Sequence record: NC_028847.1
DNA from: Escherichia phage QL01
Direction: 5' to 3' (one strand)
Length of the DNA stretch: 64,000 nt
The notes beneath the pieces are model-generated. The model did no database searches. It worked only from the letters and a program-made list of their open reading frames with translations, and was not told the DNA's origin. Below are positions 35,307 through 48,779 of the stretch, in pieces. Position 1 is the stretch's first letter. The number at the start of each line of letters is the position of its first letter. The translations under genes and the position numbers were made by a program.

Positions 35307-35888
35307 ATGTATTGTACTTACTTAACCATATACACGGGGTCTAAACTACCCCGTCGTTATATTGGCTCAACATACGTTGAAAGGATTCTCAAAGAAGGAT
35401 ATAATGGTTCTGTATTATCCCAAGCATATAAAAAGATTTGGAATCTAGAACGTAAAGAAAATCCGCACCTTTTCAAAACCAGAATTTTATCTTTATTTGA
35501 AACCGATAAAGAAGCTCGTATAGCTGAGAAAGAGCTTCAAATAAAGTATAATGTAGTTAAATCTAAAAACTATATAAATATGTCATTAGCTCAGCCTGAC
35601 GGGTTCTTTGGAATGTCTCGTAAAGGGATTCCAATGAGTGAACATGCCAAACAGCTACAAAGAGATTGTAGGTTAGGTAAAAAGAGGCCTGAACATTCTA
35701 AAGCTCTAAAAGGACGTAAGCGACCAGACCAAGCCAAAGCTATGTCTGGTGAAGGTAATCCGATGTTTGGTAAAGAACATCCGGCTAAAGGCAAAAAGAT
35801 TAATCAGCCAAGGATGATTTGCCCTATCTGTGGTGTTGAATCAACTCGTTCGGCTATAACACGTTATCACAAACATGAAAATGAATGA
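35307..35888 (+). CDS. GIY-YIG homing endonuclease (Seg-like)
   Basis: N-terminal YLTIYTGSKLPRRYIGST GIY-YIG motif; repeated NUMOD3-like K/R-rich motifs; inserted between gp19 and gp20. Confidence 0.75.
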   Translation: MYCTYLTIYTGSKLPRRYIGSTYVERILKEGYNGSVLSQAYKKIWNLERKENPHLFKTRILSLFETDKEARIAEKELQIKYNVVKSKNYINMSLAQPDGFFGMSRKGIPMSEHAKQLQRDCRLGKKRPEHSKALKGRKRPDQAKAMSGEGNPMFGKEHPAKGKKINQPRMICPICGVESTRSAITRYHKHENE

Positions 35889-35945: not shown

Positions 35946-37520
35946 ATGGCAAACTTTAATACAATATTAAGTTTTCTTAAGCCATGGGCTAATGAAGACG
36001 AAAAAGAATATAAACAACAAATTAATAACAATTTAGAGTCTGTCACCGCACCTAAGCTTGATGATGGCGCTCGCGAAATTGAGACACAAGAGCAAAATAT
36101 TCCTTATAATGCTCTTATGCAACAGATGTTTGGTAGTAATGAGCCTGAAGTTAAAAATACCAGGGAACTTATTGATACCTACCGTAATTTAATGAACAAC
36201 TATGAAGTCGACAACGCCGTACAGGAAATTGTGTCTGACGCTATTGTCTATGAGGATGATAAAGAAGTAGTTGCATTGAATTTAGACGGGACAGAATTTA
36301 GTCAAGCAATTAAAGATAAAATCTTGGCCGAATTCAGTGAAGTTTTAAACCTTTTAAATTTCCAACGTAAAGGTACTGACCATTTCCAACGCTGGTATGT
36401 AGACTCAAGAATTTTCTTTCATAAAATTATAAACCCTAAAAAAATGAAAGATGGCGTACAAGAGCTTCGTCGCTTAGACCCACGCCAAGTCCAATATATT
36501 CGTGAAATCGTTACACGTATGGAAGATGGCGTTAAAGTTGTAGACGGATATCGCGAGTTTTTCGTTTATGATACAGGCCATGAAAGTTATTGCGCTGATG
36601 GACGCATTTATTCAGCCGGGACTAAAGTTAAAATTCCTCGTGCTGCAGTGGTTTATGCTCATTCTGGATTATTAGATTGTTGTGGTAAAAACATCATTGG
36701 CTATTTGCAACGTGCTATTAAGCCTGCAAACCAGCTTAAATTGATGGAAGACGCAATGGTCATCTACCGTATTACACGTGCTCCTGACCGTCGTGTGTTT
36801 TATATCGATACAGGTAATATGCCTTCACGTAAGGCTGCAGCACAAATGCAACATATCATGAACACGATGAAAAACCGTGTGGTGTATGATGCTTCGACAG
36901 GTAAAATTAAAAACCAACAACACAATATGTCCATGACTGAAGACTATTGGTTGCAACGTCGTGATGGTAAAGCGGTAACAGAAGTTGATACAATGCCAGG
37001 TGCTACTGGTATGAGTGATATGGATGACGTTCTTTATTTCCGCACAGCACTTTACCGTGCGTTGCGTGTTCCTGAATCACGTATCCCTAGCGAGTCTAAT
37101 TCTGGTGTTATGTTTGATGCCGGTACAGCAATCACTCGTGACGAATTAAAATTCTCTAAATGGATTCGTCAACTACAAAACAAATTTGAAGAAATTTTCC
37201 TAGACCCGTTAAAAACAAACCTCATTCTTAAAAAGATTATTACAGAAGATGAGTGGGAAAAGGAAATAAATAATATTAAAGTTACGTTTAACCGTGATAG
37301 CTATTTCAGTGAAATGAAAGATGCTGAAATCATGGAACGCAGAATCAATATGCTAACGATGGCTGAACCATTTATTGGTAAGTATATTTCACATCAAACG
37401 GCTATGAAAGATTTCCTCCAAATGACCGACGAAGAAATTAATCAAGAAGCTAAGCAAATTGAAGAAGAGTCTAAAGAGGCTCGTTTCCAAAACCCAGATG
37501 AAGAAGAAGAGGATTTCTAA
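35946..37520 (+). CDS. 20: gp20 portal vertex protein
   Basis: 524 aa, same size as T4 gp20. Confidence 0.9.
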
Positions 37521-38858: not shown

Positions 38859-39674
38859 ATGCTTAAAGAACAACTGATCGCCGAAGCACAGAATATTGAT
38901 GCTTCCGTTGCTCTTGACAGTATTTTCGAATCAGTTAATATTTCTCCGGAAGCAAAAGAAACTTTCGGCACTGTATTCGAAGCTACCGTCAAGCAACACG
39001 CCGTGAAACTGGCTGAATCTCACATCGCTAAAATCGCTGAAAAAGCGGAAGAAGAAGTCGAGAAAAATAAAGAAGAAGCTGAAGAAAAAGCCGATAAGAA
39101 AATCCAAGAAGCTGCCGGTCGTTTCCTTGACCACGTTGCTAAAGAATGGATGGCTGAAAACCAGCTGGCTGTTGATAAAGGTATTAAAGCCGAACTGTTC
39201 GAATCCATGTTGATGGGTATGAAAGAACTGTTTGTTGAACACAATGTGGTTGTTCCAGAAGAAGCAGTAGATGTTGTTGCTGAAATGGAAGAAGAACTCC
39301 AAGAGCAGAAAGATGAAACCGCTCGTCTGTTCGAAGAAGTTGGTAAGCGCGACGCGTATATTAATTACGTACAGCGTGAAGTTGCTGTTACGGAAGCAAC
39401 TAAAGACCTGACTGAATCCCAAAAAGAAAAAGTTAGTTCTCTGGTAGAAGGCATGGATTATTCCGATGCATTCGGTAGAAAAATTGGCGCTATTGTTGAA
39501 ATGGTTAAAGGTCAGTCTGACGTTGAAAACCCAATCACCGAAGCCGCTATAAATAAAAATGTAGACGATGCTGCGGCACTGAATTACATTTCAGAAGCAG
39601 TTGAAGAAAAAGGCGCTAAGCCTACCCTGTCCTTCGCGGACCTGTCTGCAATCGCAGCATCACGAATTTCTTAA
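38859..39674 (+). CDS. 22: gp22 prohead core scaffold protein
   Basis: 271 aa, Glu/Lys/Ala-rich helical protein. Confidence 0.85.
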   Translation: MLKEQLIAEAQNIDASVALDSIFESVNISPEAKETFGTVFEATVKQHAVKLAESHIAKIAEKAEEEVEKNKEEAEEKADKKIQEAAGRFLDHVAKEWMAENQLAVDKGIKAELFESMLMGMKELFVEHNVVVPEEAVDVVAEMEEELQEQKDETARLFEEVGKRDAYINYVQREVAVTEATKDLTESQKEKVSSLVEGMDYSDAFGRKIGAIVEMVKGQSDVENPITEAAINKNVDDAAALNYISEAVEEKGAKPTLSFADLSAIAASRIS

Positions 39675-39695
39675 TTTAATAAGGTTATACAACAC

Positions 39696-41255
39696 ATGAA
39701 AAAGAATGCATTAGTTCAAAAATGGTCCGCTCTGCTGGAAAACGAAGCCCTTCCTGAAATCGTGGGTGCTTCTAAACAAGCTATCATCGCTAAAATTTTC
39801 GAAAACCAGGAACAAGACATCCTGACTGCTCCGGAATACCGTGATGAAAAAATCTCTGAAGCATTTGGTTCTTTCCTGACCGAAGCTGAAATTGGTGGTG
39901 ACCACGGTTATGATGCTACCAATATCGCAGCTGGCCAGACTTCTGGTGCTGTAACTCAGATTGGGCCGGCAGTAATGGGTATGGTTCGTCGTGCTATTCC
40001 TCATCTGATTGCTTTTGATATTTGTGGTGTTCAGCCTCTGAATAACCCTACCGGCCAGGTATTTGCCCTTCGTGCAGTTTATGGTAAAGACCCTATCGCT
40101 TCTGGCGCTAAAGAAGCTTTCCATCCGATGTATTCTCCAGACGCTATGTTCTCTGGTCAGGGTGCTGCTGAAACTTTCGAAGCACTGGCTGCAAGCAAAG
40201 TTCTGGAAGTTGGTAAAATTTATTCTCACTTCTTCGAAGCTACCGGTGCTGCACACTTCCAGGCTGTCGAAGCCGTAACCGTTGATGCTGCTGCTACTGA
40301 TGCCGCTAAACTGGATGCTGCTGTTACCGCTTTGATTGAAGCTGGTAAGTTGGCTGAATTGGCTGAAGGTATGGCTACTTCTATCGCTGAACTTCAGGAA
40401 GGCTTTAACGGTTCTACCGATAACCCGTGGAACGAAATGGGCTTCCGCATCGACAAACAAGTTATCGAAGCTAAATCCCGTCAGCTGAAAGCAAGCTACT
40501 CTATCGAACTGGCACAGGACCTTCGTGCAGTACACGGTATGGATGCAGATGCTGAACTGTCCGGTATCCTTGCTACCGAAATTATGCTCGAAATCAACCG
40601 TGAAGTTATCGATTGGATTAACTACTCTGCACAGGTTGGTAAATCTGGTATGACCAACACCGTTGGCGCTAAAGCTGGTGTGTTTGACTTCCAGGACCCG
40701 ATTGATATCCGTGGTGCTCGTTGGGCCGGTGAGAGCTTTAAAGCCCTTCTGTTCCAGATTGATAAAGAAGCAGCCGAAATCGCTCGTCAGACCGGTCGTG
40801 GTGCTGGTAACTTCATCATCGCTTCCCGTAACGTAGTTAACGTACTGGCTGCAGTTGATACTTCTGTAAGTTATGCAGCTCAAGGTCTGGGTCAAGGTTT
40901 CAACGTTGACACAACCAAAGCAGTATTTGCCGGTGTTCTTGGTGGTAAATATCGCGTTTACATCGACCAGTATGCACGTTCCGATTACTTCACCATCGGT
41001 TATAAAGGCGCTAACGAAATGGACGCAGGTATCTACTATGCTCCGTACGTTGCACTGACCCCGCTGCGTGGTTCCGATCCGAAGAACTTCCAACCGGTAA
41101 TGGGCTTCAAAACTCGTTACGGTATCGGTATCAACCCGTTCGCTGACCCTGCTGCTCAGGCTCCTACCAAACGTATCCAGAATGGTATGCCTGACATCGT
41201 TAACAGCCTTGGTCTGAATGGTTACTTCCGTCGCGTATATGTTAAAGGTATCTAA
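39696..41255 (+). CDS. 23: gp23 major capsid protein
   Basis: 519 aa; long stretches match recalled T4 gp23 (e.g. LPEIVGASKQAIIAKIFENQE, GYFRRVYVKGI C-terminus). Confidence 0.95.
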   Translation: MKKNALVQKWSALLENEALPEIVGASKQAIIAKIFENQEQDILTAPEYRDEKISEAFGSFLTEAEIGGDHGYDATNIAAGQTSGAVTQIGPAVMGMVRRAIPHLIAFDICGVQPLNNPTGQVFALRAVYGKDPIASGAKEAFHPMYSPDAMFSGQGAAETFEALAASKVLEVGKIYSHFFEATGAAHFQAVEAVTVDAAATDAAKLDAAVTALIEAGKLAELAEGMATSIAELQEGFNGSTDNPWNEMGFRIDKQVIEAKSRQLKASYSIELAQDLRAVHGMDADAELSGILATEIMLEINREVIDWINYSAQVGKSGMTNTVGAKAGVFDFQDPIDIRGARWAGESFKALLFQIDKEAAEIARQTGRGAGNFIIASRNVVNVLAAVDTSVSYAAQGLGQGFNVDTTKAVFAGVLGGKYRVYIDQYARSDYFTIGYKGANEMDAGIYYAPYVALTPLRGSDPKNFQPVMGFKTRYGIGINPFADPAAQAPTKRIQNGMPDIVNSLGLNGYFRRVYVKGI

Positions 41256-41271
41256 GATATAACCTTATTAT

Positions 41272-41300
41272 GGGAGACTTCGGTCTCCCATTCTTGTTTC
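41272..41300 (+). terminator. intrinsic terminator after gp23
   Basis: gggagacttcggtctccc hairpin (UUCG loop) followed by attcttgtttc. Confidence 0.55.
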
Positions 41301-41304
41301 TGTA

Positions 41305-41571
41305 TTATGCAATCTTAACTCGGCGGTTGATGATATCACGGAAGTCAATACGATTTTCTTGGATTTTCAGCCAGTTACCAGATTTGTCTTTGGTATGGGT
41401 AGAGTATTCACCGTTCCACCAGAAGTCGGTAGCATAAGCCATGGCTTCGTATTTCTTAACTAAGGCATTCACTGCATTACCATTAGGATTGTTACCGAAT
41501 TTTTCTACCAGAGCTTTGATGTCTTTATCAAGAGCGGAAAGAGTAGTACGAATAAAGTTTAACTTGTTCAT
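41305..41571 (-). CDS. hypothetical protein, early-promoter driven, antisense to the late block
   Basis: ORF 41305..41586 trimmed to second ATG with AGGAG RBS; early promoter cassette upstream. Confidence 0.5.
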   Translation of the reverse strand: MNKLNFIRTTLSALDKDIKALVEKFGNNPNGNAVNALVKKYEAMAYATDFWWNGEYSTHTKDKSGNWLKIQENRIDFRDIINRRVKIA

Positions 41572-41600
41572 TTTTAATCTCCTCATGTTTTGATAGGTCT

Positions 41601-41630
41601 ATAGTAACATGTGAGAATCTTGCTGTAAAC
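41601..41630 (-). promoter_or_regulatory. T4-type early promoter cassette, copy 4
   Basis: GTTTAC ... TACTAT agacctatcaaaac on minus strand. Confidence 0.5.
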
Positions 41631-41636
41631 AACTTT

Positions 41637-41644
41637 TATAAATA
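41637..41644 (+). promoter_or_regulatory. late promoter TATAAATA for gp24
   Basis: exact TATAAATA about 29 nt upstream of gp24 ATG. Confidence 0.55.
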
Positions 41645-41672
41645 AACATATACCCTCAATAAGGAAAGCGCA

Positions 41673-42956
41673 ATGGCAAAGATTAACGAATTACTGCGCG
41701 AGTCAACAACTACTTCCAGCAACTCATTGGGTCGCCCTAATCTTGTTGCTTTGACCCGTGCTACAACCAAATTGATTTACCGTGATATTATCGCCGAACA
41801 ACGTACTAGCCAGCCTATTGCTGCACTGTATGGTGTCAAATATCTTACCCCTGATAATGAATTTAGTTTCCAGACAGGTGCCTCTTATGGTGGTGAAGTT
41901 GGTTCTAAAGACCGTGAAACTATCCCAGAACTCACAGATAAGGCCCAGGCGATTGCTCAGGGTGAATATTTCAAGTACCAGAATGTGGTTTATAAGGCTC
42001 TTAAAGCAAGCCCACTCGCGTCCACTAGCGCCACAGAATTGGCTGAGGCTCTTCAAGAAGGTTTAGTGTCATTAACATGTCGTCTGGTTCCTGATGCTGC
42101 CCATACCACTAAATTTGAAGCGAGTGATGTAGAAATCTCTGATGCTGTATTCCAGGTTAATAAATGGAATGCTCCGGTTAAGACCCGTAAATTGAAGACG
42201 GCTTTGACTGTAGAATTAGCGCAGGATATGGAATCAAATGGCTTTGACGCGCCGGCGTTCTTAGAAGACCTCTTGGCTACAGTAATGGCAGATGAAATTA
42301 ATAAAGACGTTCTGCAATCTCTAATAACCGTATCCAAACGTTATAAAGTTACTGGTGTATCTGATAACGGCATCATCGATTTGTCTTATGACAGTGCTCC
42401 TGAATCTGCACGTAAACTTTATGAACTCGTTTGTGAGATGAATTCTGAAATCCAGAAAACTACTTCTTATTCTGGCACGTTTGTTGTGGCTTCAAGTCGT
42501 GTGGCTGCAATGCTTGCAGGTTCTGGCTGGTTAAAACATAAACCCGAAGATAATAATTGGCTTCCGGAAACTGCATACGGATATTTGTTGAATGGGCTGC
42601 CTCTGTTTTGTGACGTTAACAGTCCATTAGATTATGTTACCGTTGGTGTTAAAGAGAATTACGGCGGTAATGAAGTTGTCGGTTCTATTTTCTACGCTCC
42701 CTATACCGAAGGCTTAGATTTAGATGACCAAGAACACGTCGGTGCTTATAAGGTTATTGTTGACCCGGATTCATTACAACCTTCTATTTCTCTGATGGTT
42801 CGTTATGCACTATCAGCTAACCCGTACACCGTGGCTAAAGACGATAAAGAAGCTCGTGTTATCGATGCAACCAATATGGATTTAATGGCTGGGCAGAGCA
42901 ATATGTCTTATCTGGTTGGCGTTAAACTTCCGGCAATTATTTACGAGGCTGATTAA
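41673..42956 (+). CDS. 24: gp24 capsid vertex protein
   Basis: 427 aa, MAKINELLRESTTT..., near-identical in places to recalled T4 gp24. Confidence 0.9.
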   Translation: MAKINELLRESTTTSSNSLGRPNLVALTRATTKLIYRDIIAEQRTSQPIAALYGVKYLTPDNEFSFQTGASYGGEVGSKDRETIPELTDKAQAIAQGEYFKYQNVVYKALKASPLASTSATELAEALQEGLVSLTCRLVPDAAHTTKFEASDVEISDAVFQVNKWNAPVKTRKLKTALTVELAQDMESNGFDAPAFLEDLLATVMADEINKDVLQSLITVSKRYKVTGVSDNGIIDLSYDSAPESARKLYELVCEMNSEIQKTTSYSGTFVVASSRVAAMLAGSGWLKHKPEDNNWLPETAYGYLLNGLPLFCDVNSPLDYVTVGVKENYGGNEVVGSIFYAPYTEGLDLDDQEHVGAYKVIVDPDSLQPSISLMVRYALSANPYTVAKDDKEARVIDATNMDLMAGQSNMSYLVGVKLPAIIYEAD

Positions 42957-44236
42957 TGTCTAAGATTGTAGACCTAATTAAAGAATCCACATTGACGGCT
43001 GCCAGCTCGGTTGGCCGTCCTGCTCTTCTTTCATACACCCAAGCAACTAATAAACGAATCTTTAAAGCCCTAGTTGCTGAACAAAAAACAAATCAACCGG
43101 TTGCTGCTCTGTATGGGGTACGTGTACTGAATCCTGACGACAAAATGACTTATCTTGGTGGAGCAACATTTGCGGGCCAGATTGGTATGACGGAACGTGA
43201 AAATATTCCAGAATTTACTGATTCATCTACAGCTTATGCGGTCGGTGATATGTTCCAGTTTGAAAGCGTAGTGTTTAAAGTTCTAGAAGCATCTCCTTTC
43301 GCCGGAACCACAGAAACCAACCTCAGCGAAGTTATTTCTGAAGCAGTGGCAGCCGGCCATATCCGTATGGTGTCGGATGCTGCTATTACTTCTAAATTTG
43401 AACAGGGCCATCCTGAAATTGCTGAAACCGGATTCCGTATCGACAAATGGCAATCTGAAGTTAAATCACGTAAACTGAAAACTTCATTGACAGTCGAATT
43501 AGCCCAAGACCTAGAATCTAACGGGTTTAATGCTCCTAATTTCGTTGAAAATCTGCTAGGCATTCAAATGGCAGAAGAAATTAATAAGGATGTATTACAG
43601 TCATTAATTACCGTGAGCTCTCGTTTTAAAGTCCAGGGTGTTTCTGAAAAGGGTGTATTAGACCTTACCAACCCTCGCTACGATAATGCCCAGGACCGTG
43701 CTCGCACATTATATTATTATATGTGTGAGATGAACTCTGCCGTCCAACGACAGACTTCTTTTGCCGGGACTTATGCAGTAGCTAGTTCTCGTTGTGCTGC
43801 TATTCTCGCCGCCTCTGGTTGGGTTGAGAAAAAGGAAGACCAGGACGAATTGGCTTATGGTATATTAAAGAATGGCCTACCACTTTATGCTGATATGAAT
43901 AGTCCATGTGATTATGTTATTGTTGGTGTAAATGCCCAGATGGGTGAAGGACAGACGGTCGCATCTTTATATTATGCGCCTTATACGGAAGGTTTGAATG
44001 TGGTTGACGAAGAAGGTGATACTTCAGTTGGTGAATTTAAGGTTATTGTTGACCCGGAAAGCTTACAACCTACAGTAGCATTGCTTGCTCGTTATGCATT
44101 GACTGCAAACCCTTATACCGTCGCTAAGGACGATAAAGAAGCCCGCATTATTGATGGTTCTGATATGGACAAAATGGCTAATCAAAGTCAATTGAGTTCT
44201 TATCTCGGCGTAAAATTACCGCCTTTAGAAAAATAA
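42956..44236 (+). CDS. gp24 paralogue (second vertex-protein-like gene)
   Basis: 426 aa, clearly homologous to the upstream gp24 (shared blocks RKLKTxLTVELAQD, EINKDVLQSLITVS, ANPYTVAKDDKEAR) but diverged; start overlaps gp24 stop. Confidence 0.8.
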   Translation: MSKIVDLIKESTLTAASSVGRPALLSYTQATNKRIFKALVAEQKTNQPVAALYGVRVLNPDDKMTYLGGATFAGQIGMTERENIPEFTDSSTAYAVGDMFQFESVVFKVLEASPFAGTTETNLSEVISEAVAAGHIRMVSDAAITSKFEQGHPEIAETGFRIDKWQSEVKSRKLKTSLTVELAQDLESNGFNAPNFVENLLGIQMAEEINKDVLQSLITVSSRFKVQGVSEKGVLDLTNPRYDNAQDRARTLYYYMCEMNSAVQRQTSFAGTYAVASSRCAAILAASGWVEKKEDQDELAYGILKNGLPLYADMNSPCDYVIVGVNAQMGEGQTVASLYYAPYTEGLNVVDEEGDTSVGEFKVIVDPESLQPTVALLARYALTANPYTVAKDDKEARIIDGSDMDKMANQSQLSSYLGVKLPPLEK

Positions 44237-44238
44237 AA

Positions 44239-44254
44239 GGGACCGTAAGGTCCC
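44239..44254. terminator. bidirectional terminator hairpin between convergent gp24 paralogue and rnlB
   Basis: gggaccgtaaggtccc (GUAA loop) with T-runs on both strands. Confidence 0.5.
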
Positions 44255-44262
44255 TTTATCGT

Positions 44263-45270
44263 TTATTTGGATACTAGTTCAATCCATACATGTCTTAATG
44301 TTTCTTTTACGCACTCAACGAGCTGCTTTTTAACTTCAACGGGATTTTCCGCATCAGTTAATTCCAATTCTTCACGGGCGGCTTCTTCAAGGATATCCTG
44401 GACTGTCAAGCCCATCACCTTTCCGAAATCCTTCGGCGATACTTCGCCAATCTTACTGATGACATTGTTAATGCGGTTAACAGTCACATAATCGGTGAAT
44501 TGCCACATCAAATCCATATCGTCTTGGGACAATACCACTGCAACTTTAATAGGCTTATCAGACTTTTTCTTCTCGCTGAATTTAGAGTTCTTACATTTAA
44601 TCGCCACACGATTTCCGTTTGGAAGCCAGAGCGGATAACAAGGTTTTAATACGTACCCTTCAGCGGTAAATACTTCACCTTTTACTTCAGCATTCCACAC
44701 ATAGGCATTAGCTTCAATTAGCCCGACGTTATCTACCATAAAATTATAATCAGGAAGGACGGAATCTAAATCATTTGGCAATTTAATAAGGTCTTCAAAT
44801 TTACCACGTCCTAAAAGTGGAGCCAGTTTAAATCCAAAGGTCTTACAAAATGATTCCATCATATAATCATCGACATAGGTCACATCACCACTTTCGGTGG
44901 TAACAATAATGTCAAATACATAAAAATCTTTAGCACCGTAATCAACATTCTTCTGAATGCCTGTTCCAGCGAATTCACCGAAAACTTGATAAGATACAGC
45001 TGCCGAAGTTTCCATAATATCTTGTACGGCTTTAATAGAATCGGCATAGTTCTTAAGTACAATTTCATAGCCATAGAAATCTTCAGCAGGGAGGATAGGG
45101 CCAGTGCGCTTGGCGCATGTGACTGCGTCACGTTCTATGATTAAACTAAAGTTGGTTCCATGAATCTTCTCACGTGCTACCCATTCACCACCAGTCAAAC
45201 CATTAGTACGGAGTTTTTCGATAAACTTACTGTTGTAGTGGTTTTCGAGACTGCTATATTTCTTGAACAT
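44263..45270 (-). CDS. rnlB: RNA ligase 2
   Basis: 335 aa, [20 protein letters not shown]...KIHGTNFS ligase motif, matches recalled T4 Rnl2. Confidence 0.9.
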
Positions 45271-45384
45271 AAATCACCATAATAAATATAATTAAATAGA
45301 AGAGCTAGTAGTCTTCTGTCACCAAGCCAAATGGTTTAACGGAAGGACCTAGACCCATTATATCACACCTAAATTTAAAGCATA

Positions 45385-45633
45385 TTACTTTGAACTAGAA
45401 CGCGCTTTGCGCCGAACCTTGTTGTTCAATCTTTTACGATAAACAACCTTTTCTTTCGCTTTAAATTTGGCCTTGGCTTGTTCTACATCAACCCATGCTT
45501 TGGCCATGTCCTTAGCGGTCCCGCCCATTTTTTTAGCAATTTCTATAAAATTCAACCCAGATTCGTGTAAAAAATGTACTTTAACCTTATCCATAACAAT
45601 TCTCTCGTTGAGTTGGTAAACCCATCTTAACAT
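45385..45633 (-). CDS. hypothetical small basic protein, possibly DNA-binding (true start may be internal)
   Basis: 82 aa ORF with helix-turn-helix-like segment and Lys/Arg-rich tail. Confidence 0.4.
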   Translation of the reverse strand: MLRWVYQLNERIVMDKVKVHFLHESGLNFIEIAKKMGGTAKDMAKAWVDVEQAKAKFKAKEKVVYRKRLNNKVRRKARSSSK

Positions 45634-45697
45634 AGAATTTTTAACTTGTAAACAGGAATTTTGTACTTTAATGCAAAATGGGCCTTGCGGCCCATTA

Positions 45698-46546
45698 TTA
45701 ATAAATGTAATCGTATATAATACCAGCTTCTAAAGCGGTGCGATGAATAATTCGACCATTACGAGATTCTTGTACATCAACCTCTGAATAGTCGGTAATC
45801 ATTTTTTGAAGTGTATATCGGTGCAAATAATACGGGCTATCCGGGTCATCTGTTTTCCAGTCTTTGCCTTCAAGAGTCATTTTCTGGATTTCATCCATAA
45901 CCCACCAACCAACCCAAATATATGCTGAATTACGAACAGGGAGTGGATGAACGTAAGGTAATTCGCCATCCAGAACCGGTGCGACTTTAGCCGTGACTGT
46001 TACATTACCGGTTTTTGTGACAGTCGCCGGGTTATAATCAGTCGCCGAAACCACAACAGAAACTTCAATAACCTGTGAACCTTCAGTGCTTGTATCGATT
46101 GCTAGAGTATCCGTGGTGCCAACTACAGGAGAACCGTCTTTCTTCCAAGAATAGGCAAAAGTAGCACCAGCAGGAGCGCCGACCACATCCGCTTTAAAAG
46201 AAGCTGGAGTGCCTTCCGGAACATTAATCGAAGCTGGGGTTAATGTCACAGAAACACCAGTCATAGTTTTATTCTGGATAGTTAAAGTCGTCTCAGCTTC
46301 AGCAGTTTCCGGTTCGCCGTCCGCTGGTGTAGTTGTTGCAACAACTTTAATAGTCTTGCTGCCTGCTGGACCAACAGCAACATAATCCATTGCAGCAGTC
46401 ACAGAAGATTGAGGAACGCCATCAACAGTCCAGACAAATGATTCAGTACCTTCAGCTGCAGCACCGGAACCGGTCGCAGTGAAATTGGTTGTTGCTCCAA
46501 TAACGGCCGTAGCCGCCGAAGGAGAAATATCTACGGTATAAGCCAT
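45698..46546 (-). CDS. hoc: Hoc-like outer capsid protein with Ig-like domains
   Basis: 282 aa, Thr/Val/Gly-rich beta-domain repeats; position between rnlB and inh as in T4. Confidence 0.65.
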   Translation of the reverse strand: MAYTVDISPSAATAVIGATTNFTATGSGAAAEGTESFVWTVDGVPQSSVTAAMDYVAVGPAGSKTIKVVATTTPADGEPETAEAETTLTIQNKTMTGVSVTLTPASINVPEGTPASFKADVVGAPAGATFAYSWKKDGSPVVGTTDTLAIDTSTEGSQVIEVSVVVSATDYNPATVTKTGNVTVTAKVAPVLDGELPYVHPLPVRNSAYIWVGWWVMDEIQKMTLEGKDWKTDDPDSPYYLHRYTLQKMITDYSEVDVQESRNGRIIHRTALEAGIIYDYIY

Positions 46547-46555
46547 AATAAACCC

Positions 46556-47227
46556 TTATTTTAAAGTGACAAAAGATGAGTTACGAGTTTCTCGTACTAG
46601 AACAGACCCATTACGATTGATGTAATAAATCAAGCTGAATAGTGTTTGGTGTGCGGTAGGATGTTGGAAACTGGTTGGACGTTCTTTCCAATCCGGAGTC
46701 TCAGAAATCCATTGGTAAATCCACCAAGGAACGGTGCAATAACCTGGGTTCTTACCGATAAGCAAAAGATTAGGACTGAAGTTTTCAGGTAAAGAGAATA
46801 CAGGTTTTTCAGATTCAACAACCTTGGCTATAGCCCCTTTGAATTTCTCTTCGTCAAATGGAACATCCTCTTCGATAATCTCTACCTTAGGAAGTTCGGC
46901 TACCTCAACGACTTCTACTGCAGCCTCAGGGGCATCGAACAACAGGGTGGCTTCTTCTTTAGCTGGTTCAGCACCATCAACAAATTCGTTAGCACCTGTA
47001 AGTTCGTCGGCAGCATCAATCAAATCAGAAATGGACAACCCTTCGGTTTCTGGGAGTGGTTCGTCAGCCAAGGCTTTAAGGCCTTCAGAGATATCGATAA
47101 TCAAATTATCAAACGAACGGGTTTTCTTAAGTTTTAAACCGAACTGTTCGCCGTATTCGATTAACTTAGCTTTAGCTTCTTTTTTATCTTCGAGTGCACG
47201 AAGCTCTTCAATATATTGAGTATCCAT
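46556..47227 (-). CDS. inh: Inh-like protein (inhibitor of prohead protease)
   Basis: 223 aa, acidic; position between hoc and uvsW as in T4 (synteny only). Confidence 0.5.
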   Translation of the reverse strand: MDTQYIEELRALEDKKEAKAKLIEYGEQFGLKLKKTRSFDNLIIDISEGLKALADEPLPETEGLSISDLIDAADELTGANEFVDGAEPAKEEATLLFDAPEAAVEVVEVAELPKVEIIEEDVPFDEEKFKGAIAKVVESEKPVFSLPENFSPNLLLIGKNPGYCTVPWWIYQWISETPDWKERPTSFQHPTAHQTLFSLIYYINRNGSVLVRETRNSSFVTLK

Positions 47228-47246
47228 AATTAGTCTCTTGTTGGTG

Positions 47247-47254
47247 TATAAATA
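47247..47254 (+). promoter_or_regulatory. late promoter TATAAATA for uvsW
   Basis: exact TATAAATA about 28 nt upstream of uvsW ATG. Confidence 0.5.
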
Positions 47255-47282: not shown

Positions 47283-48779
47283 ATGCAAATTCAAGTACAT
47301 TTTGATAATTTTAGTCATGTCCGTATTGAATGCGATGAATCTACATTCTACGAACTCAGAGACTATTTTAGCTTTGAAGCTGATGGATATAAATTCAACC
47401 CTAAATTTCGTTATGGTCAATGGGACGGACGTATTCGCCTTCTGGATTACAACCGTAAACTTCCTTATGGATTGGTCCCTCAAATTAAAAAGTTCGCTGA
47501 ACAATTTGAATACTCTCTGTGGATTGACCCACGTATTCTTGAACAGGAAGATATTTCTCGTGAAGATTTTGATTCATGGGTGGCTTCTCAAGAAATTTAT
47601 TCAGGGTCTACCAAGATTGAGCCTCATTGGTATCAGAATGAAGCCGTATACAACGGCCTGACAAAACGTCGCGCAATTCTGAATTTACCTACATCTGCAG
47701 GTAAATCATTAATCCAGGCACTCCTGAGTCGATATTACGTTGAGAACTATGAAGGTAAAATCCTCATCTTAGTTCCTACTACTGCACTTGTCGACCAGAT
47801 GATTAACGACTTCATCGATTATCGTCTGTTCCCTAAAGCCGCAATGCTTGGTATTCGTTCAGGTACTGCTCGTGATTCCGATGCAATGATTTATGTTTCA
47901 ACTTATCAAACCGCTATCAAGCAACCTAAAGAATGGTTTGCTCAGTTCGGTATGTTTATGAACGACGAATGCCATTTGGCTACAGGTAAATCTATTTCTA
48001 CTATCATCGAAGGCCTAACCAACTGTATGTTTAAATTCGGTTTGTCTGGTTCTTTAAAAGATGGTAAAGCTAATTTAATGCAATATATGGGTTTGTTTGG
48101 TGATGTGTTTAAGCCAGTATCCACCTCCCAGTTAATGGAAGAAGGACAGGTTACTGACCTTAAAATCAACAGTATTTTCCTTCGATACCCAGACGAATTC
48201 ACGGTTAAAATGAAAGGTAAAGATTACCAATCAGAAATCAAGGTCATTACTAAGGCTACTCGTCGTAATAAATGGGTTGCTAATTTAGCTGTTAAACTCG
48301 CTAAGAAAGAAGAGAACGTATTCCTGATGTTTAAAAACATCGAACACGGTAAAACTCTTTTTGAAATGGTTAAAGAGCAACATAAAGAAGTTTATTACGT
48401 ATCAGGTGAAGTTAATACCGAAACGCGTAATGCTCTGAAAGTAATGGCGGAAAATGGTAAGGGTATTATTGTTGTGGCAAGTTATGGTGTGTTCTCTACT
48501 GGTATTTCCGTTAAGAACCTTCACCACGTTGTATTTGCCCATCCAGTAAAATCTAAAATCATTGTACTCCAGACAATTGGTCGTGTACTCCGTAAACATG
48601 CCTCTAAATCAACAGCACAGGTGTGGGATATCATCGACGACATGGGTGTTAAGCCTAAATCAGCTACGGCTAAAAAGAAATATGTTCATTTGAACTATGC
48701 CCTCAAACACGCTTTAGAACGTATTCAACGTTATGCTGATGAGAAATTTAATTACGTAATGAAACAGGTGGATTTATGA
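47283..48779 (+). CDS. uvsW: UvsW RNA-DNA and DNA-DNA helicase
   Basis: 498 aa with Walker A LPTSAGKS and DECH box. Confidence 0.85.
   Translation: MQIQVHFDNFSHVRIECDESTFYELRDYFSFEADGYKFNPKFRYGQWDGRIRLLDYNRKLPYGLVPQIKKFAEQFEYSLWIDPRILEQEDISREDFDSWVASQEIYSGSTKIEPHWYQNEAVYNGLTKRRAILNLPTSAGKSLIQALLSRYYVENYEGKILILVPTTALVDQMINDFIDYRLFPKAAMLGIRSGTARDSDAMIYVSTYQTAIKQPKEWFAQFGMFMNDECHLATGKSISTIIEGLTNCMFKFGLSGSLKDGKANLMQYMGLFGDVFKPVSTSQLMEEGQVTDLKINSIFLRYPDEFTVKMKGKDYQSEIKVITKATRRNKWVANLAVKLAKKEENVFLMFKNIEHGKTLFEMVKEQHKEVYYVSGEVNTETRNALKVMAENGKGIIVVASYGVFSTGISVKNLHHVVFAHPVKSKIIVLQTIGRVLRKHASKSTAQVWDIIDDMGVKPKSATAKKKYVHLNYALKHALERIQRYADEKFNYVMKQVDL

Follow-up and report, generated by a model that had tools for sequence, protein, structure and literature searches.

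Two adjacent gp24-type vertex protein genes, one of them deep-branching, in a Dhakavirus phage

The gene pair and its expression signals

The window, a stretch of 64,000 nucleotides of Escherichia phage QL01 (NC_028847.1), originates from a JS98/Bp7-type T4-like coliphage and contains two adjacent genes for vertex proteins on the plus strand. Gene 24a (copy 1; 41673..42956) encodes a T4-gp24-like capsid vertex protein of 427 aa, which matches PF07068 with 330 bits and is annotated as 'head vertex protein' in phage Bp7. Gene 24b (copy 2; 42956..44236) encodes a deep-branching gp24 paralogue of 426 aa, assigned below to clade B. Both genes share the A at 42956, which is the last base of the copy-1 TAA and the first base of the copy-2 ATG (TAATG), as had been noted in a preliminary description of this DNA.

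A comparison by BLASTP showed that 236 of 428 residues are identical between copy 1 and copy 2 over the whole length (55%, 77% positives, E 1e-177). This bears out the full-length homology claimed before for the 426-aa product, and all three sequence blocks quoted as shared were found in both proteins. In the proposed alignment with gp23 and gp24, copy 2 sided with gp24 (55-57%) over gp23, with an identity of 25% (E 2e-21) to the gp23 of the window. Among the PDB chains, T4 gp24 (1yue_A) was matched with an E of 1.4e-150 over residues 1-423, compared to E ~1e-11 for the chains of T4 gp23. The profile scores were 323.8 bits for PF07068 (cutoff 24.4) and an E of 1e-122 for phrog_138. Judged by these matches, copy 2 is a full-length gp24-type protein, far closer to gp24 than to gp23. 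The statement that copy 1 closely matches T4 gp24 holds for the first ~35 residues, which are near-identical, but is overstated for the protein as a whole, since the near-identity is confined to this stretch and the total identity is only 70% (copy 2: 56-57%). Between the two copies, the core spine-helix and P-domain blocks showed identities of 75-85%, compared to only 25% at T4 residues 61-80; the least conserved stretch was I-domain linker 1.

A T4-type late promoter motif, TATAAATA, is located on the plus strand at 41637..41644, 29 nt upstream of the copy-1 ATG. No further plus-strand copy of this motif is present within 39555-47247, in particular none ahead of copy 2; in the window as a whole, 19 matches of the motif were counted compared to 8.0 expected. 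In JS98, VR5, S16, PWKp16 and L013, the late motif likewise precedes the copy-1 ATG (-33 to -37), and in T4 it occupies the corresponding position. As read from the sequence, the Shine-Dalgarno motif of copy 1 is AAGGA (41661..41665, plus strand, 7 nt 5' of the ATG), which is kept as aaggaaagcgcaATG across the Dhaka/Gelderland loci. That of copy 2, GAGG (42945..42948, plus strand), lies within the 3' end of copy 1, 7 nt 5' of the copy-2 ATG, and also occurs in JS98, VR5 and S16. The junction between 24a and 24b stays within -1 to +4 nt throughout the eight loci compared (window, JS98, VR5, S16, PWKp16, L013, L015 and L016), and the placement as second cistron after an A-type gp24 was likewise observed in L018, L019, Cronus and VR7. 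Translational coupling, as suggested before, is consistent with the overlap, the GAGG within copy 1, the tight junction and the lack of an own late promoter motif for copy 2.

Downstream, a GC-rich hairpin with a 9-bp stem and a 4-nt loop (44236..44257, both strands) scores as an intrinsic terminator and ends the 24a-24b unit as well as the convergent rnlB. In JS98, VR5, S16, PWKp16, L013 and T4, a comparable hairpin is located behind the last gp24 gene. The motifs by themselves point to a single bicistronic late unit of 24a and 24b. This architecture is kept in eight loci comprising five genera and metagenomes, and 24b sits in the late operon of head genes with no regulatory separation from 24a.

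Distribution and age of the second gene

The window showed nucleotide identities of 99.6-99.8% to the Dhakavirus phages E33, PSD2002, WG01 and Bp7, in which both genes are annotated as head vertex proteins, and represents a Bp7/WG01/E33-type isolate. On the protein level, copy 2 is identical to its counterpart in Bp7 (100%) and shares 91% with 24b of JS98 and 83% with gp109 of S16. In GenBank the pair is named 24a/24b (JS98, JS10, IME08), 24(1)/24(2) (VR7) or vertex protein I/II (VR5, CGG4-1); it is also annotated in WG01, S16 (gp108/gp109) and Bp7 (F392_gp011/gp012). The genes of the JS98 type are the same as those of the window and are alike in order, junction, promoter and terminator, with no substantive difference. 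The comparison with other T4-like genomes, which had been advised, revealed the same two-copy arrangement in about 118 of 1417 gp24-bearing phage records (~8%), distributed over the genera Dhaka-, Gapriver-, Gelderland-, Marfa- and Risoevirus. The second vertex gene is thus already known and annotated in more than 100 phage genomes, and in annotation or phage-therapy genomics such a pair is a routine feature with established names.

The duplication of gene 24 is reportedly mentioned in papers on JS98 (2004 and 2007), which lay outside the scope of the full-text searches; these found no literature on two gp24 genes. Neither the literature searched nor the PDB yielded expression, virion-proteome or structural data for two-copy phages, and the PDB contained no gp24-type chains besides those of T4. 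The virion mass-spectrometry papers found deal with single-copy phages (Jiaodavirus ValerieMcCarty and Morganella phage MP1).

Copy 2 is intact and constrained as strongly as copy 1. The dN/dS values were 0.04-0.08 for copy 2 and 0.04-0.06 for copy 1, with 0.12-0.17 in two comparisons of the latter with PWKp16, and the dS between the paralogues was at least 1.5 or saturated. The nucleotide identity of the two copies amounted to 60%. A recent gene conversion was rejected on the basis of a third-position identity of 39% and a longest common word of 21 nt. GC content (42.6% vs 42.2%) and Nc (42.3 vs 42.4) hardly differ between copy 1 and copy 2; no foreign composition was detected for copy 2, the codon usage of which is the phage's own.

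All copy-2 proteins form clade B (100% bootstrap; 14 members, drawn from five genera and from metagenomes), which excludes every first-position and single-copy gp24. In the gp24 trees, which are NJ/distance trees with weak deep nodes (~40-47%), copy 2 branches outside the clade joining copy 1 and the single gp24 of T4. Therefore, the split would be older than the divergence of T4 gp24 and copy 1, and the second gp24 lineage goes back at least to the T4/Dhakavirus split. What had been described as a gp24 copy directly downstream of gp24 is accordingly a full-length paralogue, but not a simple local duplicate. Both clades show the topology (PWKp16,(S16,(VR5,(JS98,window)))), so that the copies co-diverged. 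A long-branch artefact was considered as a cause for the outside placement. Within the distance methods it is unlikely, because copy 2 is no more distant from the outgroups than copy 1 (copy 2 vs copy 1: Roth68 63/63%, Thanatos 57/59%, Phi1 46/43%) and the quartets were stable with gamma-corrected distances.

The split may go back to an ancient duplication with a later loss in T4, or to an import from another lineage. It is quite possible, though somewhat short of an even chance, that clade B entered the gene 24 operon from a distant, unsampled lineage of T4-like phages and later passed between the ancestors of the Dhaka type and the Risoevirus type. A sister relationship of the two copy-1 clades has a bootstrap of only 1%, and the branches separating them include single-copy phages, among them T4 and Karam-, Moon- and Kanagawavirus. 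Furthermore, the identity between the groups is 67-71% in clade B compared to 62-64% in copy 1, as would be expected if B moved later, and T4-like genomes are mosaic, with gp23 identities out of step with the gp24 grouping. However, no genome with a B-type gene as its sole gp24 was found among the hits of at least 66% identity, all of which, where checked, are the second gene of a pair. The fully native composition of copy 2, the identical position and junction in both groups and the weak deep nodes of the distance trees also count against an import. The alternative would be an ancient duplication in situ, with subsequent losses in T4 and in the other lineages that have a single copy. No copy-2 remnant was found in T4, where just 29 nt separate gp24 from the convergent rnlB. 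A 267-aa ORF that follows gp24 in Klebsiella phage Roth68, taken up as a candidate remnant, proved unrelated to gp24.

That copy 2 is a recent tandem duplicate, decaying or silent, deserves practically no credence: the genes do lie side by side in one orientation and are equally long, but the low nucleotide identity, the saturated dS and the low dN/dS speak against it, as do a bootstrap of 0% for a B+A1 clade, quartets of 95-99% for (copy 1, T4-type)|(copy 2, outgroup) and intact orthologues in about 118 records, the ORF being intact in every locus.

Fold, maturation site and diagnostic residues

The AlphaFold model of copy 2 reached a pLDDT of 75 and a pTM of 0.71, with values below 50 in the N-terminal 33 residues, where several of the diagnostic sites are located. 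Its best matches in the PDB were T4 gp24* chains in capsids (5vf3_a, TM 0.84/0.86; 7vrt, TM 0.75/0.83), and an HK97 fold with an insertion (I) domain is predicted for copy 2. No gp24 domain is missing from either copy, and 69 columns were invariant across 46 sequences.

During maturation of T4 gp24, 10 N-terminal residues are removed (PMC9546572). Glu10 and Ser11 were invariant in 54 homologues, clade B included, with the motif (L/I)-x-E10↓S11, and for 24b a cleavage by the prohead protease is predicted after Glu10 (MSKIVDLIKE↓STLT). Substitutions specific for clade B are concentrated in residues 26-57. Eight of them are fixed (T32N, L34R, Y36F, K56R, Y57V, P244Q, Y267F and E335Q), mainly at residues 32-57. 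Three small indels are located after residue 238, around 295-298 and around 350-355 (T4 numbering). In T4, residues 26-29 of gp24 pair with an I-domain linker from the neighbouring subunit within one pentamer (PMC9546572). Copy 1 of the two-copy phages showed only three convergent sites, which are too few for interpretation.

T4 gp24 (1YUE; in capsids 5VF3, 7VRT/7VS5 and 8GMO) resembles copy 2 in family, length and domain order, in the maturation site after residue 10, as predicted for 24b, and in the modelled fold (TM 0.84-0.86). Likewise, gene 24 of T4 follows gene 23 under a late promoter, as 24a-24b does. Unlike the window, T4 has one gene, from the product of which copy 2 differs by its 56-57% identity, its separate deep clade and the eight diagnostic substitutions.

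The positions at which T4 gp23 can bypass gp24 have been reported (PMC9546572). Bypass residues were not found at these positions in two-copy phages: the gp23 of the window carries the wild-type N381, A387 and K420. Since these are not gp24-bypass residues, a vertex protein would still be needed.

Possible roles of the two paralogues in the capsid

On balance, 24b is probably the second cistron of a 24a-24b late operon and a functional, non-redundant second penton protein. It would be translated from one late mRNA in a manner coupled to 24a, would lose its N-terminal residues to the gp21 prohead protease and would join the capsid in the form of pentamers at the non-portal vertices. The two proteins would not be interchangeable, because purifying selection has kept both since before the T4/Dhakavirus split. 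The backup or decoy role considered in the preliminary description is disfavoured by the same observation, both copies showing dN/dS values of 0.04-0.08 over a divergence that saturates synonymous sites.

It is conceivable, but doubtful, that 24a and 24b build separate pentamers, which would occupy distinct sets among the 11 vertices of the prolate head. This idea draws on the clade-B-specific substitutions in residues 26-57 and on the poorly conserved I-domain linker 1, two elements that in T4 pair between adjacent gp24 subunits within a pentamer. Still more tentatively, such homopentamers might sort themselves to geometrically non-equivalent vertex classes, for example a portal-proximal versus a distal ring or apex. 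The low identity in the I domain and its linker is not specific for such self-sorting, because these parts vary among gp24 orthologues generally.

Rather unlikely, though to be weighed seriously, is a free mixing of 24a and 24b, within pentamers or among vertices, in which case dosage, robustness or surface/antigenic diversity, and not position-specific roles, would explain why the pair is kept. The complete set of domains in both copies, the 69 invariant columns and the high identity of the core blocks fit this explanation, and coupled co-expression from one mRNA would bring both proteins to the same proheads. In addition, gp23 takes the vertex position in T4 bypass mutants, so that a substitution is tolerated there (PMC3012670). 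On the other hand, fully redundant duplicates are not expected to last with a dN/dS of ~0.05 in both copies, in at least five genera and with saturated dS; no decayed copy was found in any sampled genome, and the eight fixed substitutions set copy 2 apart from every other gp24.

A product that is made but is not a stable part of the capsid, be it an assembly factor, a transient prohead component or a host-defence decoy, is very unlikely. Capsid proteins trigger some abortive-infection systems, which would fit a decoy. However, constraint extends across every structural domain and the C-terminus of copy 2, the cleavage site is invariant, the predicted fold superposes on capsid-embedded gp24*, and the gene lies in the late operon of head genes, not set apart from 24a in its regulation.

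A non-redundant second penton protein can be compared with two other paralogous pairs. The pair gp23/gp24 of T4-like phages, in which the penton protein derives from the major capsid protein, is alike in that a capsid-shell gene was duplicated and specialised, with adjacent copies in the late head operon, and 24a/24b would be another round of this process; it differs by an identity of ~21-25% and clearly distinct roles (hexamer vs pentamer), whereas 24a and 24b share 55% and both look like pentamer formers. In alpha-carboxysomes, CsoS4A and CsoS4B are encoded by adjacent paralogous genes and both are vertex-capping pentamers of an icosahedral shell. Their fold belongs to the BMV/EutN family and is unrelated to gp24, the shell is non-viral, and the pair has been reported as largely redundant. 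The selection pattern of 24a/24b argues against a redundancy of this kind.

T4 is the reference model for the assembly of prolate capsids, and its vertex protein is usually portrayed as a recent, easily bypassed addition (PMC3012670). Two diverged, constrained vertex genes in ~8% of the sequenced gp24-bearing phages, together with the ancient second lineage, suggest a vertex specialisation layered beyond the T4 model. If the paralogues are position-specific, they would provide a natural tool to study the recognition of non-equivalent vertices in a prolate shell. If self-sorting holds true, this would be the first position-specific penton system of a tailed phage, and the single gp24 of T4 would be a secondary simplification.

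The coupled translation suggests comparable amounts of 24a and 24b, and such amounts fit a 5/6 split of the vertices and mixed pentamers equally well.

Two intact gp24 genes in one probable late unit

The gene 24a, which encodes a gp24-type capsid vertex protein (copy 1; 41673-42956, + strand, 427 aa), is directly followed by its neighbour 24b (copy 2; 42956-44236, + strand, 426 aa), and the overlap noted in the preliminary description consists of one base common to the stop codon of the former and the start codon of the latter (TAATG). Over their whole length, the proteins share 55% identical and 77% similar residues (E 1e-177), in agreement with the proposed full-length homology, and all three quoted motifs are present in both copies. 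In the alignments with gp23 and gp24, copy 2 clearly sided with gp24: T4 gp24 (PDB 1yue_A) matched with an E of 1.4e-150 over residues 1-423, while T4 gp23 chains reached about 1e-11 and gp23 of the window showed 25% identity. Furthermore, copy 2 surpassed the PF07068 threshold by a margin of 300 bits, and its predicted structure (pLDDT 75) gave a TM of 0.84-0.86 on capsid-embedded T4 gp24*. Copy 2 is therefore a gp24 and not a gp23. Copy 1 is nearer to T4 gp24 (70% identity) than copy 2 (56-57%), as had been described, whereas the close match claimed for copy 1 holds true for the N-terminus only. Altogether, the feature is real and was described well.

A T4-type late promoter motif TATAAATA (41637-41644, + strand) is located 29 nt 5' of the copy-1 ATG, and no further late promoter motif was found on the + strand until 47247. 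The 3' end of copy 1 comprises a GAGG 7 nt before the copy-2 start, and a GC-rich hairpin of 9 bp (44236-44257, both strands) reads as a terminator. Judged by these motifs, translation of 24a and 24b is probably coupled. The layout recurs in eight two-copy loci, in which the promoter motif lies at -33 to -37 relative to copy 1, the copies are separated by -1 to +4 nt and a hairpin is situated 3' of copy 2, while in T4 a single gene 24 is bounded by the same promoter and hairpin. Since these layouts match, the unit would correspond to the late cistron of T4 gene 24 with a second cistron before the terminator.

Age and origin of the second copy

A recent, pseudogenised duplicate was refuted by the data. 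The nucleotide sequences of the copies showed an identity of 60% (39% at third positions) with a longest common word of 21 nt, and the paralogue dS was at least 1.5 or saturated, which together with the tree position rules out a recent origin. Compared to its orthologues, copy 2 showed a dN/dS of 0.04-0.08, similar to copy 1 with 0.04-0.06 (0.12-0.17 in two PWKp16 comparisons). GC content, effective codon number and codon adaptation were alike in both copies, and no disrupted gp24 copy was found in any locus inspected, so that a pseudogene or silent copy can be dismissed.

As an observation, the gene 24 pair is already known, since it is annotated and named in relatives. Over the 2.7-kb region, the Dhakavirus Escherichia phages vB_EcoM-E33, PSD2002, LQ5, FB, WG01 and Bp7 match at 99.6-99.8% identity, and their records annotate both genes as head or capsid vertex proteins. 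The pair is named 24a/24b in JS98, JS10 and IME08, 24(1)/24(2) in VR7, capsid vertex protein I/II in VR5, head vertex protein I/II in CGG4-1 and gp108/gp109 in Salmonella phage S16, and JS98 papers of 2004 and 2007 reportedly mention the duplication. The suggested comparison with other T4-like genomes yielded gp24 matches (tblastn) at 1534-1535 places in 1417 phage records; accordingly, two copies are carried by about 118 records, which fall into Dhakavirus, Gaprivervirus, Gelderlandvirus, Marfavirus and Risoevirus.

Neighbour-joining trees were built from 18 gp24 proteins and then from 46, and a single clade B, with 100% bootstrap, took in every second-position gene. The first-position genes were divided between clade A1 (Dhaka, Gapriver, Gelderland, Marfa) and clade A2 (Risoevirus-like), and both joined the single-copy gp24s (T4, Karam-, Moon-, Kanagawavirus and others) in a crown clade with 86% support and B outside. 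Monophyly of A1+A2 received 1% and B+A1 0%. Distance quartets grouped copy 1 with the T4 type, and B with the outgroup, at 95-99% under three distance corrections, and 13 sites grouped A with T4, compared to 4 and 3 for the alternatives. The branch of clade B is not unusually long, its outgroup identities being equal to those of copy 1. Thus, B split from the A/T4 lineage before T4 gp24 and copy 1 of Dhakavirus diverged. Since the phage branching order was identical within B and A1, and each B-type protein that was traced to its contig (identity 66% or higher) was the second gene of a pair, both genes have long been inherited together.

Two origins can be considered. An ancient in-situ duplication, with 24b lost later from T4 and the other genera with one copy, is somewhat favoured, in which case the single-gene state of T4 would be derived. 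The somewhat less plausible alternative is that B came from an unsampled lineage and later moved between the A1 and A2 ancestors, for which it speaks that between these groups B is 67-71% identical and copy 1 62-64%. The preference for duplication is slight, since only distance methods were used and support for the deep nodes is weak.

Copy 1 of both two-copy groups, which the tree does not place as sisters, shares the derived residues Y313F, I324T and L376M (T4 numbering), while copy 2 and single-copy phages kept Y/I/L. Possible causes are convergent adaptation of copy 1 to the presence of copy 2 and an error in the tree.

Proposed role in the capsid

We favour 24b as a putative non-redundant second penton protein, which would be co-expressed with 24a and then trimmed as in T4, where the prohead protease removes the first 10 residues of gp24 (PMC9546572). 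Glu10 and Ser11 were invariant in 54 homologues, including the whole clade B. The gp23 of the window comprises wild-type residues at the three gp24-bypass positions, and therefore a dedicated penton protein is still needed. A non-virion role of 24b is unlikely.

Conservation between the copies was uneven: identity reached 75-85% for the spine-helix/P-domain block (T4 residues 172-231) and for residues 376-405, compared to 25-40% at 21-40, 61-80, 122-141 and 152-171. Eight substitutions are fixed in B, unlike all other gp24s, with five of them at residues 32-57. Within a T4 pentamer, residues 26-29 pair by a beta interaction with an I-domain linker of the adjacent subunit, while residues 11-20 and I-domain linker 2 contact neighbouring hexamers (PMC9546572). 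The I domain is variable, and its divergence may be unrelated to paralogue sorting.

The T4 head comprises 11 distinct gp24 subunits per fivefold asymmetric unit (PMC9546572), so non-equivalent vertices exist, and the paralogues might tentatively be expected to self-sort into separate pentamers, each at its own class of vertex in the prolate head. The main rival of the non-redundant reading, which we consider less likely, is that 24a and 24b mix freely or are interchangeable. The literature searched yielded neither proteomic nor genetic nor structural data for any two-copy phage, and T4 is the only phage with gp24 structures in the PDB.

Neighbouring genes and variable slots

The slot from the last gp24 gene to rnlB is a variable insertion point. 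Klebsiella phage Roth68 (L005 4326-5129) and PWKp16 (L004 4308-5042) carry unrelated hypothetical ORFs there (267 aa and 244 aa, respectively), without gp24 similarity and with marginal mutual similarity. In Risoevirus-type loci, two more same-strand genes follow the second vertex gene (L021, Erwinia phage Cronus, 4327-5842; L013 4890-6427; L016 5326-6841; L018 2634-4140). One encodes a fibre-like, collagen-like protein of 334-352 aa (phrog_5073 tail fiber; 'tail fiber protein' in Cronus), the other a 'Hoc-like head decoration' protein of about 166 aa. Together they might form a module for head fibres or decoration, which is absent from the window.

Between genes 23 and 24, where T4 carries the homing endonuclease segD, the window has a 93-aa ORF (41305-41586, - strand; phrog_6003, no Pfam match), homologous by annotation to JS98 orf173 and VR7 ORF190c. 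A 193-aa ORF (35307-35888, + strand) between genes 19 (tail tube) and 20, annotated as HNH endonuclease in Bp7, looks like a mobile-element insertion in the late structural cluster. The window is of the Bp7/WG01 type of Dhakavirus but differs from Bp7 itself: contrary to the RefSeq record of Bp7, which has gp20 as two CDS and an H-N-H homing endonuclease splitting uvsW, the portal gene 20 (35946-37520, + strand) and uvsW (47283-48779, + strand) of the window each form one intact ORF.
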